The notes below the pieces were generated by a model, which was not told where the DNA came from, did no database searches, and worked only from the letters and a program-made list of their open reading frames with translations. Source: Alteromonadaceae bacterium (GTDB taxonomy: Bacteria; Pseudomonadota; Gammaproteobacteria; Enterobacterales; Alteromonadaceae). Taken from it: a stretch of DNA of 64,000 bases. The stretch is from NCBI GenBank assembly GCA_965656875.1, contig CBFHMJ010000028.1:70292-134291 (forward strand), written 5' to 3'. The position numbers and the translations under genes were made by a program. How positions within the stretch are numbered: position 1 is the first letter of the stretch; every line of letters starts with the position of its first letter. Positions 37,410 to 50,306 of this stretch are shown piece by piece.

Positions 37410-40400
37410 TTAATTATTCATATTGGAGATGGATTCGTTCTGAAATAAAGGAAATTCTAATTCAAACAACCAGTCCAACCCTTCCGGCGATCCTGAACGA
37501 TTGTCTTCAATGGTTAAGGAGCCATCTTCATTATTCAGTTCGGTAAAATCACTGTTTAATGCTGGGTAGTAAATGGTATCCAGACCTCCGCGTCCATAAA
37601 TTAACTGATTACCAGGCATTGAACGGAAGATATCATCCTGCTCGGTAGCCATTGATGGAAAGACCAGTTTCATGGTGGCGTTACTCTGATTGTATGCAGC
37701 GACTAATCGTCCATCACTGAGAACGGCGAATGAAGGCCAGTACTGATTACTGTCAAGATAGTTCGCCAGATACTGCTCATCGGTAACCGGGTGACCATCG
37801 GCATTGTAACGGCGAAGCAAGGCTTCCCAATCAGACTGGCCTGCCGTTAACCGTGAGTGCCAACCAACAACCCAGCCACCATCTGGCATTGCAACAATGT
37901 CGGTAACAAATTGATCGTGTTCAGTCGTCTGATTGACCCGCATGACTTCGGTTTTAAACGTTCCGTTAGCAGCCATCTGACGAGCGGCCACAGCATAATA
38001 ATCATCCCCTTCAATACCAGTTTTCTGAGTCCAGCTCACCACATAATCTCCCTGAGGTAACGCCGTGATTTCGACCAGTCGATAATGATTGTAATAAGGA
38101 ACACTATTGGTCGATATGATGACAGGTGAACCGATACGACTACCCGTATGGCTGAATCGTTGCGCGACGATTTGTTGATCGATCCAGGCTGCAATGACAA
38201 AGCTGCCATCTGCAAGAACAACGAGATCGGACAGATACTGATTAGCTACTAAATCAGGGAAGGCATGAAGATAGTTGCCAGGATTATGCTCTCTGTCGAA
38301 CATACGGTAATAGACCCGGCCACCAGTAAACCAGGTGATAACGGACGCTCCATTATTCAGCCAGACACCGGCAGTTTCATTCCCTGAACTACCTGATGAA
38401 TGCCAGCCCGTGCGGGCGGTGAAGTCCGCGTTAAAAAATTTGGTATAACTGGTGCCAGAGTCGTATTCGGTTGTAAAGAATACACCATCATCACGGGCCG
38501 CAATTCGCGGTGCTGTTGCATTTGTGCTATCTACTAACAGGTAGTTGCGGGTAGGTTGTCCTTGTCGGTCAAAATGGCCAACATAAACATCGTCACCGGT
38601 AGAACGCCAGATGGCGTAGAATGTATCATCTGCCAGTGGTTCGACCTGGGAATAATATCCTGAACTGAGCGTATAAAATGAGCCATTGCCAGTGAGTCCG
38701 ACTTCTAACCTTACGGAACGATTAGCACCCTGATTATCGGTATAGGTGAGTGAATCAACGCCCACAAAATCTGCATGTGGTTCAAAACGCCAACCTGAAG
38801 CCTCGTTGTGTAACAGACCATGGTCAGGAAGTGTATTTGGACTGACAATGAACGGGATTAGTACCGAAGCATTTTGATCGACTTGTACCAGATGATCCCA
38901 GTGTTTCAGGTTTTGACCTGTGTTAAACGGGATGCTAATCCGATCATCGGCAAACTCCAGTACTTCAATATTTTTCACACGACTTTCACCATCGGGTGAA
39001 CCCGATCGAATATCCAGAATGCTGTACCAGCCATCGCCGTGATCGATTATCTGATAATCATTATAATTTCCAGTGAATATCACCGTATCGGTATCGGCAC
39101 CACCATCAACGACAACCTCTCTTGTGACATAGATATCATCGAAACCGGCACCTGATTGCACGGTTGATGCACCTGTTATCACATCATGTCCACTTCCTGC
39201 GGTGACATGCACGCTGTTGGTAAAAATGTTATCACCATTGCCACCGTTGACTCGGAATCCGCCATTTATCTCGTCATTGCCAGCGCCGGTGTTAACGATA
39301 TCGGCTGTGTTGGCATAAACAAGATTGTCGCCATCATCACCGCGTAAGATGTTTTGTTGAGTTGTTGCTGGCTGTATAAATGAGAGTGAAAGTTGACTAT
39401 CTTGTCGATTGAATACGCTTACGATTCTTCCGTCAGTTAGCGTAGCAAAACTGGGCCAGTATTGACTGGCTTGTTTCCAGTTCACGATAAATTGTTCGTC
39501 ACTAATGGGCGATCCATGAGCATTGAATTGACGTGAGTACGCTTCCCAGTGTTCAACACCTGCATCTGTTCGACTGTACCAGCCGATAATCCATCCGCCA
39601 TCAGCCAGTGCGGTGATCTCAGTCAAATATTGGTCGTGAATTGTTGTTTGATTGACCGTTATTGCATCAGTAACAAAATTTCCGTCTATATCGACTTGTT
39701 GAGCAACTACAGCGTAGTTATCGTCACCCGTTGCACCTGATTTCTGAGTCCAGGCCACTACATACCCTCCCTGCGGCAGAGCTGTAACCTCAATGACCCG
39801 GTAATTTCGGTGAAAAGCAATCGGCGTTGAAGAGAAAATAACAGGTTCACCCAGACGTTGACCCGTATGGCTAAATCGTTGAGCGGTGATGTGTTGTTCA
39901 ACAAGCGCGGCAATTACAAAACTGCCATCAGGTAATGCGGCAATGTCTGAAGAGTATTGAGTCGCTCCATATTCAGGAAAAGCCTGTTGGTAGTCACCGG
40001 CATCAAGCTCCCGACTAAATTGGCGGAAGTAAACTTTTCCGCCGGTAAACCAGGTAATAACGGCTGATCCATCTGCTAACCATGCACCAGCAGTCTCATT
40101 GTAGGAACTCCCAGAGGCAAACCAACCACTTGCTGCGGTGAAATCAGCATTAAAGAATTTGGTGTAGCTAGTGCCGGAATCATATTCGGTGGTGAAGAAC
40201 ATGCCATCTGGTCTGGCAGCAATGCGAGGAGCAGTTGCATTAGTGCTATCGATTAATAGATGATTTCGAGTTGGTTGGCCATTAATATCAAAATGTCCCA
40301 TATAGACATCGTCACCCGTTGAGCGCCAGGCCGCATAAAATGTACCGTCGGCCAAAGGGACGACCTGAGAATAATAACCGGTCGCGAAATCTGACCAACT

Positions 40401-50306: not shown

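Follow-up and report, generated by a model that had tools for sequence, protein, structure and literature searches.

On the minus strand of the 64-kb window (the whole stretch of DNA analysed), a single open reading frame (ORF) with an ATG start and zero N bases encodes a protein of 4,298 aa, as read from the ORF list and the translation. It is a real gene, and its exact product is recorded in the NCBI assembly, on a contig of 260,476 bp. The product is probably a secreted subtilisin-type protease, with a protease head at the N-terminus and seven modules behind it (Table 1). A preliminary description of the locus had proposed a protease of family S8 that starts with a Sec-type signal and ends in an array of repeats, and this layout was borne out by the ORF, the Pfam matches, and the repeats; taken as a whole, its observation was confirmed in part and its interpretation supported in part. 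Its composition, very acidic with little lysine (D 9.2%, K 0.8%), is one expected of a Ca-binding extracellular protein.

Table 1. Features of the gene, in window positions.
Feature	Positions	Strand	Residues	Description	Basis
Whole gene	37410..50306	(-)		Pre-pro-subtilase, 4,298 aa, seven C-terminal modules	ORF list, translation
Signal-peptide-like N-terminus	50238..50306	(-)	1-23		Read from sequence by eye
Inhibitor_I9 propeptide	49965..50180	(-)	43-114		Pfam PF05922, 23.9 bits (cut-off 21.2)
Peptidase_S8 catalytic domain	49137..49895	(-)	138-390		Pfam PF00082, 144.7 bits (cut-off 21.8)
M0	47493..49064	(-)	415-938	Divergent, short beta-roll	27-33% aa identity to other modules; module-tree outlier
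M1	45783..47492	(-)	939-1508		57-59% aa identity to M2-M4
M2	44073..45782	(-)	1509-2078	First of three near-identical units	91.1% / 90.6% DNA identity to M3 / M4
M3	42363..44072	(-)	2079-2648	Module used for modelling	
M3, Ig-like domain	43845-44045	(-)			
M3, 7-bladed propeller	42804-43823	(-)			
M3, beta-roll and cap	42381-42779	(-)			
M4	40647..42362	(-)	2649-3220		92.9% DNA identity to M3
M5	38928..40646	(-)	3221-3793		aa identity 45% to M2-M4, 56% to M6
M6	37413..38927	(-)	3794-4298	Terminal; roll cut to one turn plus cap	Module alignment
638-bp tract, copy 1, in M3	42460..43097	(-)		Identical to M4 copy	Exact-repeat search
638-bp tract, copy 2, in M4	40750..41387	(-)		Identical to M3 copy	Exact-repeat search

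Plus-strand ORFs of 170 aa (two) and 207 aa (two) recur within the gene at 1,710-bp intervals; we rejected them as genes, being antisense shadows of the repeat. The upstream neighbour on the same strand encodes an extracellular PHA depolymerase, and an adjoining TauD-like gene encodes a ScoE-type isonitrile synthase, with a PKS cluster nearby. Scanning with consensus motifs gave neither a promoter in the 253-bp gap upstream of the gene nor a terminator on the minus strand behind it, negatives that carry little weight.

Read by eye, the N-terminus has the layout of a signal peptide: MRILPQK, with two basic residues, is followed by a 17-residue hydrophobic core and VAA/V. In the S8 domain the catalytic triad is intact (D145 in DTGYD, H185 in GHGTH, and S342 in GTSVATP) and, together with the oxyanion N248, it aligns with 1v6c, a secreted alkaline serine protease that is the closest solved relative of the domain (E 1.4e-48); all four residues are invariant or nearly so in an alignment of 19 sequences. 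The profile score above the curated threshold, the triad with the oxyanion Asn, and the I9 propeptide behind a putative signal peptide all place the protein in Peptidase S8, and judging from its sequence the domain is catalytically competent.

The closest S8 relatives (45-52% identity) bear other binding-type C-terminal domains, namely fibrinogen_C, F5/8 type C, SGL propeller, PPC, and PKD. This variety at the tail position suggests that the tail is a swappable targeting module. The secreted multidomain subtilases of marine gammaproteobacteria (1v6c; S8 with PPC/PKD tails) share with the protein studied here the signal peptide, I9, an S8 domain with intact triad, and C-terminal accessory domains; they differ in the tail, which comprises one or two small PPC/PKD domains in them and seven ~570-aa modules here. 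An AF2 model of the head with the first module (residues 1-938) had low confidence (pLDDT 65, pTM 0.44) and does not resolve how the two pack.

The tail spans ~3,900 residues and is ten times as large as the protease. Where six ~570-aa modules had been counted before, the alignment gives seven, including the divergent M0 and the truncated M6. Each module opens with an Ig-like domain, continues with a seven-bladed beta-propeller, and closes with an RTX-like beta-roll that is one-sided and capped; the two-part module proposed earlier (a beta-roll and a W/Y-rich beta region) thus had to be replaced by one of three parts, with the Ig-like domain before the propeller. The module starts are recognised as Ig-like by the Pfam models Big_9 (70.7 bits versus 23.6, four stretches) and Cadherin_5 (51.6 bits versus 26.5, three stretches), the latter matching M0 at residues 435-480. 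The cap is conserved and carries the motif DTVIFSG..DY.I.DNGDGSY.I.D.R.GSPDG....NIE..EF.D, and the linkers from cap to Ig are short and conserved in the module alignment (..EFADNR....P..DHIVQ). M6 lacks most of the beta-roll, and the protein stops a few residues past its cap. The earlier description of the modules as GGxGxD-rich applies to the C-terminal part of M0 to M5 and fails for M6, which has none of these motifs.

At the DNA level, direct repeats start 1710, 1710, and 1710 bp apart, flanked by spacings of 1719 and 1713 bp, in agreement with the 1,710-bp tandem repeats first described. Tandem Repeats Finder reported nothing at the array, because its period limit is 500. The units had been called near-identical, and this is true of M2-M4 (90.6-92.9% DNA identity), while every other pair of modules shares 42-63%. 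Likewise, DNA identical over more than 500 bp, ascribed to three inner modules, was found in one pair, M3/M4, where the longest exact repeat measures 638 bp; the next longest are 100, 87, and 77 bp. Comparing M3 with M4, we found zero differences at unit positions ~990-1630 and 2-36 per 90 nt elsewhere. Sites specific to one unit number 89 in M2, 51 in M3, and 59 in M4.

Among M2, M3, and M4, dS is 0.24-0.33, reaching 0.39 outside the converted tract, and dN/dS is 0.12-0.13. These values do not fit the very recent amplification suggested before; they indicate that M2-M4 are old duplicates under purifying selection, which acts on every near-identical unit. The alternative then offered, gene conversion, draws support from the mosaic in which the unit-specific differences are arranged. 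In our reading of these patterns, M2-M4 are old copies patched by gene conversion, and the 638-bp tract is a conversion tract.

Such an array could be misassembled, with inner units collapsed or expanded, so that the true module number in the strain would be higher or lower than seven. Indeed, the 638-bp exact repeat exceeds short-read length, and a related metagenome contig breaks exactly where the modules begin. Furthermore, one assembly alone, that of NCBI, has the exact 4,298-aa product recorded, and not the independent Logan short-read assembly, which also reproduces most of the flanking genes (of nine flanking proteins searched for, eight are recorded from both; the rest were not found under the start tried). 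Exact searches of the contig index with window proteins gave no match, and hence no independent assembly in which to read the array. Against this, the unit-specific sites imply that none of M2, M3, and M4 is a duplicate made by the assembler and that all three must exist, and the frame runs unbroken through 12.9 kb, each unit having a dN/dS of 0.12. We therefore regard a wrong unit count as unlikely, while keeping it in mind; additional copies identical to M3 or M4 are possible. The long exact repeat and the in-frame units of 1,710 bp make the locus a likely site of both copy-number change and assembly error, and module counts from short-read assemblies are not to be trusted.

We found four other proteins that combine S8 with these modules: P0010 (nine modules), P0156 (about two), P0157 (one), and P0158 (one), all uncharacterised. 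P0010, of 5,640 aa, comes from the ENA metagenome ERZ27264919. Like the protein studied here, the four have the whole-module architecture and signal-peptide-like N-termini and end right past the cap, and P0010 and P0157 also have a truncated terminal module of the same kind as M6. P0010 contains a block of homogenised inner modules with 81-88% identity. On the other hand, the modules of the four are only 20-31% identical to those studied here, the loci of P0010 and P0158 have genomic contexts unrelated to this window, and the head of P0010 is an S8 of a different subfamily (proteinase-K type), in which the catalytic Ser and the oxyanion Asn are apparently lost, making it probably inactive. In the module tree the modules cluster by protein, which indicates that the arrays were amplified independently in each lineage.

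To judge from these searches, the combination of S8 with such modules is rare. The scan of GTDB species-representative contigs gave only two matches, both to unrelated RTX-cap proteins, and the metagenome contig scan gave only distant propeller relatives without S8. The sequence cluster of the 4,298-aa protein has a 414-aa fragment as its representative. The alignment of the modules of the window and of P0010 was too divergent for a locus scan. Overall, the protein is a rare and unusual build from familiar domain types rather than a new kind of system.

The AF2 model of one module (M3) was confident (pLDDT 81, pTM 0.71). It shows an Ig beta sandwich (module residues 10-76), 28 propeller strands in seven blades, and a beta-roll of 12 three-residue strands with 15-17 residues per turn; in the module alignment, DG-type blade motifs number seven per module. 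A profile search with the propeller matched 31,003 representative proteins at E<=1e-3 and 6,626 at E<=1e-30, many of them giants of 2,000-8,000 aa with 10-38 matched stretches each. This significant match places the propeller in an unnamed superfamily of giant and RTX proteins that share the "LxDGGFvvxW" propeller repeat. Neither Pfam nor NCBIfam has a model for the propeller, and none from Pfam covers the repeat in the seven members tested. As to the possibility raised at the outset that the modules belong to a well-described family, the propeller is a member of a very large family of repeats, one with neither a known function nor a curated model.

Among solved folds, CylK (the best structural match) and the PLL/PHL lectins come closest. 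For CylK (PDB 7RON), a cyanobacterial Friedel-Crafts alkylating enzyme, identity is 15%; its domain order is reversed, as here the propeller precedes the roll, and it is a single-copy biosynthetic enzyme, whereas here the unit is a repeated tail on a protease. The features of the CylK family (sequence homology, an N-terminal Ca domain on the top face of the propeller, and Arg105/Tyr473) are not found in the modules. A link of CylK-like modules to the adjacent PKS cluster through a halogenase was considered and rejected, the TauD-like gene being a ScoE-type isonitrile synthase. With the PLL/PHL lectins of Photorhabdus the modelled module shares the seven-bladed propeller, a likeness at fold level only (~12% identity); those lectins are free-standing proteins of ~350 aa without Ig domain or beta-roll, both of which are present in the modules.

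The modules had also been credited with RTX-like Ca-binding motifs. In favour of this, the module profile matches the RTX blocks of CyaA (E 3.5e-18) and the AF2 model contains a beta-roll, yet the roll is not canonical. Pfam HemolysinCabind (PF00353) gave no match to the protein even at E<=1, and strict GGxGxD motifs number 0-2 per module, the remainder being loose Ca-type turns at 15-17-residue spacing on one side of the roll only. Classical RTX proteins and adhesins (CyaA, serralysins, LapA/MpIBP type) have in common with the protein studied here the G/D-rich Ca-type turns in a beta-roll, and like it they can be giant and repetitive, with Ig-like spacers. The differences are that here one Ca-type turn falls on each rung of 15-17 residues in place of tandem GGxGxDxUx nonapeptides, and that the rolls are internal, one per module, in a protein with a Sec-type N-terminus.

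A related alternative is that the protein is exported as an RTX adhesin-like substrate of a type I secretion system (T1SS), with Ca-ratcheted passage through ABC, MFP, and TolC components encoded elsewhere and an N-terminal hydrophobic stretch that is not cleaved. T1SS substrates often end with a roll and a cap, as this protein does, and the cap motif also occurs in the serralysin-like and other HemolysinCabind proteins P0001, P0004, and P0005, among the matches listed in a one-module search; the rolls are related to the CyaA blocks, and the NCBIfam SapA model matches six stretches of the protein. Conversely, a Sec-type n-h-c layout is seen by eye at the N-terminus of all five family members, here followed by an I9 propeptide, and classical T1SS substrates have no signal peptide and carry an uncleaved C-terminal signal, for which essentially no tail is left past the last cap. 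No model of a T1SS C-terminal target domain matched at E<=1, and no ABC, MFP, or TolC genes lie in the 64-kb window or beside P0010 and P0158, though unlinked genes may exist. On balance, the claim that the protein is not a T1SS substrate gained support, and we consider T1SS export improbable.

As best reading, held with moderate confidence, we propose an exported pre-pro-subtilase with a Ca-stiffened, multivalent, lectin-like binding tail. A Sec-type signal peptide would direct export, and an I9 propeptide follows it ahead of the S8 domain. The beta-rolls and Ig domains would fold and stiffen in Ca-rich surroundings and serve as spacers, and the propellers could act as lectin-like binding units, giving the tail multivalent attachment to a ligand. 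Attachment would keep the protease on its target, which may be a polymeric substrate, a particle, or the surface of the cell itself. The array would evolve via in-frame unequal recombination (1,710 bp corresponds to 570 codons) and gene conversion between units. Two observations sit uneasily with a binding tail: CylK, the best structural match, is an enzyme and not a binding protein, and the nine modules of P0010 stand behind an apparently inactive head, so that the array, there at least, must have a role other than holding an active protease in place.

An alternative is that the propeller/beta-roll modules are themselves enzymes (CylK-like, or lyase- or sialidase-like) and the protein a poly-enzyme. 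We give this little credence: the propeller profile did not detect CylK even at E<=10, the order of domains is reversed, and the active site of CylK requires Arg105, supplied by an N-terminal Ca domain that packs against the propeller's top face (PMC8916777). Moreover, the neighbouring TauD-like product is not a halogenase that would supply CylK-type substrates, and there is no evident reason for a secreted protease to carry an enzyme sevenfold. It is also quite unlikely that the protein is a polyprotein whose N-terminal S8 cuts the linkers and frees the propeller modules as lectins or matrix components. In favour of it are the short, conserved cap-to-Ig linkers and a proposal that N-terminal S8 domains of other giant proteins cleave themselves (bioRxiv 10.1101/2023.11.21.568195). 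Against it, we identified no motif for cleavage, the family has members with a single module (P0157 and P0158), and P0010 retains all nine modules behind its apparently inactive head.

If the tail is indeed a multivalent, Ca-stiffened binder, it would offer a marine bacterium a way to hold a diffusible protease on particles or on its own surface, and retention of proteases on particles bears on the degradation of particulate organic matter. Read from its sequence, the protein is also an example of RTX-like rolls outside T1SS export, and it points to a very large family of propeller repeats missing from curated libraries. A broader and rather doubtful possibility is that the unit of Ig domain, propeller, and one-sided roll is a self-contained, Ca-dependent, lectin-like cassette, routed by Sec and not by T1SS, which can be multiplied in frame behind exchangeable heads, here an active one of subtilisin type and in P0010 an apparently dead one of proteinase-K type. 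Were this true, these giant "enzyme-on-a-rope" exoproteins of marine bacteria would form a class not described before, and a propeller repeat present in >31,000 protein clusters without a curated model would receive its first function.

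The tail of the S8 protease comprises seven modules, here M0 to M6 from the N- to the C-terminus, where the preliminary description had counted six. Module borders were anchored on the DH[IL]VQ and GLPGNG motifs. Direct repeats in the gene are spaced 1719, 1710, 1710, 1710, and 1713 bp apart, a scale that escapes Tandem Repeats Finder because of its period limit of 500.

Features of the protease and of the surrounding loci (window coordinates, or residues of the 4,298-aa protein)
Feature	Position	Strand	Remarks
Protease ORF	37410-50306	-	4,298 aa, ATG start, uninterrupted, 0 ambiguous bases
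Inhibitor_I9	residues 43-114		Pfam
Peptidase_S8	residues 138-390		Pfam, 144.7 bits (gathering score 21.8)
M0	residues 415-938
M1	residues 939-1508
M2	residues 1509-2078
M3	residues 2079-2648
M4	residues 2649-3220
M5	residues 3221-3793
M6	residues 3794-4298
Antisense ORFs, 170 aa	40770-41282; 42480-42992	+	inside protease gene
Antisense ORFs, 207 aa	43074-43697; 44784-45407	+	inside protease gene
Extracellular short-chain-length PHA depolymerase	50560-52482	-	NCBIfam e_dPHAscl_type1, 180 bits (cut-off 150)
Likely isonitrile-forming cluster	54118-63706	+
ScoE homologue	54118-55017	+	E 1.6e-112 to PDB 6dch
FcoT-like thioesterase	55163-55696	+
Free-standing ACP	55713-56105	+
Type I PKS	56111-62419	+	2,102 aa, KS-AT-DH-ER-KR-ACP
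JmjC/cupin hydroxylase	62486-63706	+
Second giant ORF	7015-24420	+	5,801 aa, lipoprotein-like N-terminus (..LVALSSC..)
rtcR/rtcB/rtcA RNA-repair locus	29052-35366
SPFH/Band_7 protein	31173-32828		551 aa, between sigma-54 activator RtcR (-) and RtcB
Short tandem repeat	36710-36747		AAAAAGGC x 4.8, downstream of protease gene
Small unannotated ORFs	36426-37074	-	overlap the short tandem repeat

The repeats described earlier are real but overstated. Near-identity holds for M2, M3, and M4 only (pairwise DNA identity 91.1, 90.6, and 92.9%; protein 92-94%), while all remaining module pairs show 42-63% DNA identity. Similarly, exact stretches above 500 bp had been attributed to three inner modules, but only one exists, a 638-bp tract common to M3 (42460-43097) and M4 (40750-41387); the next exact repeats measure 100, 87, and 77 bp. 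The antisense ORFs, which recur with a 1,710-bp period, are only shadows of the repeat but could be mistaken for genes in annotation.

M2, M3, and M4 differ from one another in a mosaic pattern. Between M3 and M4 there are 0 differences at unit positions ~990-1630 and 2-36 per 90 nt elsewhere; in the first 270 nt of the unit, M2 sides with M4 against M3. The dS values (Nei-Gojobori) of the three pairs were 0.31, 0.33, and 0.24, rising to 0.39 for M3/M4 without the identical tract, and dN/dS was 0.12-0.13 throughout. These values speak for old copies and against the very recent amplification first proposed, whereas the mosaic and the local M3/M4 homogenisation are coherent with gene conversion, its other proposal. 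By these measures, M2-M4 are old duplicates kept by purifying selection, in which gene conversion has homogenised local stretches. As the unit is 570 codons long, recombination between units adds or removes whole modules in frame.

It is possible that the array was miscounted, by a single route, the collapse of identical copies. Every unit carries private sites (89 in M2, 51 in M3, and 59 in M4), thus none can be an assembler-made copy, but assembly could have collapsed additional units with the same sequence as M3 or M4. The exact 4,298-aa product is recorded from NCBI only, on a 260,476-bp contig, while RtcB and seven of nine further window proteins that were looked up are recorded from both NCBI and Logan short-read assemblies. 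This suggests that the Logan short-read assembly failed to reconstruct the array. The protein's cluster is represented by a 414-aa product on a metagenome contig (L008; ENA ERZ23498944 scaffold_79257). The contig DNA matches the 5' end of the gene and the region upstream of it (window 48900-50460) at ~97% identity, so a close relative exists in nature. Near residue 398, L008 has a tandem duplication of 62 bp that shifts the frame, producing the 414-aa call, and it represents either a genuinely disrupted allele or a misassembly; the contig stops exactly where M0 begins and so carries no information on the number of units. Neither GTDB species representatives nor JGI metagenomes, when scanned, yielded a close relative.

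M3 was modelled with AlphaFold2 from an alignment of the seven modules and two distant homologues (pLDDT 81.2, pTM 0.71). The model contains an Ig-like sandwich (module residues 10-76), in agreement with the Pfam Big_9 and Cadherin_5 matches, a seven-bladed propeller of 28 strands (84-423), a beta-roll of twelve three-residue strands (432-523), and a capping sheet (530-564). One DG-type motif is present in the sequence of each blade. Roll and propeller fit the earlier picture of a roll joined to a W/Y-rich beta region, which lacked the preceding Ig-like sandwich. The proposed RTX-like motifs are partly recovered: the whole-module profile matches only CyaA RTX blocks, via the roll region (E 3.5e-18), but Pfam HemolysinCabind has no match in the protein at E<=1. 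The Ca-type turns are spaced 15, 15, and 17 residues apart, so canonical and non-canonical nonapeptides alternate and the Ca-type turns lie on one roll side only. [quoted passage not shown] Catalytic, CylK-like modules are quite improbable, since the sequences are unrelated and the domains stand in the opposite order. The propeller profile gave nothing meaningful among PDB sequences at E<=10, CylK included. A polyprotein that processes itself is another improbable reading.

In the head, the N-terminal S8 part, the Pfam I9 and S8 matches confirm the subtilisin recognised earlier, and the active site is intact. Judged by eye, the N-terminus (MRILPQK, a 17-residue hydrophobic core, and VAA↓V) reads as a Sec signal, as first proposed. 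The best-supported reading is that of a pre-pro-subtilase, intact in its active site and putatively exported via Sec. That RTX-like repeats occur here in a protein with a Sec-like N-terminus is coherent with the lack of T1SS components in the 64-kb window and adjoining P0010 or P0158, two other S8-plus-module proteins; a T1SS RTX-adhesin-like protein is contradicted by this, by the signal-like N-terminus, and by the lack of a T1SS signal.

The nearest S8 relatives (45-52% identity) have other C-terminal domains (fibrinogen_C, F5/8 type C, SGL-propeller, PPC, or PKD), which points to the tail as a candidate swappable targeting module. Within P0157/P0173/P0175, P0159/P0168, P0160/P0161, and P0162/P0171, the S8 subfamily is the same and the C-terminal domains differ (module, SGL/NHL propeller, fibrinogen_C, F5/8 type C, He_PIG). 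The longest contigs match in size within these four groups (81, 93, 216, and 43 kb), suggesting that members sit on common contigs and pointing to families of tail-swapped proteases inside single genomes.

A profile of the seven propellers was searched exhaustively with HMMER through 1.84 billion cluster representatives. At E<=1e-3 it matched 31,003 proteins, and at E<=1e-30 it still matched 6,626; many of the matches are giants (2,000-8,000 aa, 10-38 matched stretches). No Pfam model covers the blade repeat in seven giant proteins tested, nor any NCBIfam model that of the window protein. The blade repeat is thus very widespread yet uncurated. Among the top 150 matches, only P0010 (5,640 aa, ENA metagenome) shows all three parts (Ig, propeller, roll) in register, with a signal peptide, I9, S8, and then nine modules. 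A second search with residues 1-938 of the window protein added P0157 (906 aa; S8 and one module closely like M6, roll truncated), P0158 (1,000 aa; S8 and one full module), and P0156 (1,495 aa; about two modules). Each of the five proteins has a signal-peptide-like start and ends directly after the cap, the conserved sheet closing each roll. By these sequence searches, the whole architecture is rare. The literature search gave no account of S8 proteases bearing Ig-propeller-roll modules, and subtilisins are nowhere mentioned in a 2010 RTX review.

In a neighbour-joining tree, M1-M6 form one clade, sister to the P0157 module, and the P0010 modules form another, including that of P0158. Clades follow proteins, so the arrays grew independently in each lineage. 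The inner P0010 modules m5-m7 are homogenised (81-88% identity). The P0010 head (residues 1-449; contig L001 4159-5505) is 22% identical to the window head and of proteinase-K/aqualysin type (keratinase 5wsl, E 2e-64), so heads have been swapped. Aligned to 5wsl, it has Pro (SHSPTA) for the catalytic Ser (SGTSMA) and Leu for the oxyanion Asn (ANMSLGG); it is probably inactive and may be a pseudo-protease on the same kind of array.

Among the neighbouring loci, the PHA depolymerase, which also has Big_13 and Glucodextran_B domains, lies 253 bp upstream of the protease gene on the same strand, and co-expression of these two secreted hydrolases is possible. Described isonitrile lipopeptide clusters have an NRPS where the window cluster has a PKS. 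In Pfam, the 5,801-aa ORF matches only PA14, Laminin_G_3, and, weakly, FG-GAP; at E<=1e-10 it lacks internal repeats, and it bears no relation to the protease modules. Its exact sequence is absent from the protein collection, and the annotated start may differ. The small unannotated ORFs gave no family matches. The window RtcB is 100% identical to a protein recorded from an NCBI assembly, and its best named relatives, at 77-80% identity, are from Motilimonas, Paraglaciecola, Alteromonas, and Pseudoalteromonas, which suggests as source a marine gammaproteobacterium of Alteromonadales type that lacks near named kin.

Every domain type is familiar, and the kin of the protein are multidomain secreted subtilases and giant repeat exoproteins. 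On the best-supported reading, the tail would string together seven lectin-like propellers, stiffened by Ca, and so provide multivalent attachment to a polymeric target or the cell surface. The uncurated propeller repeat, and its use alongside RTX-like rolls in apparently Sec-dependent proteins, offers the most useful lead.
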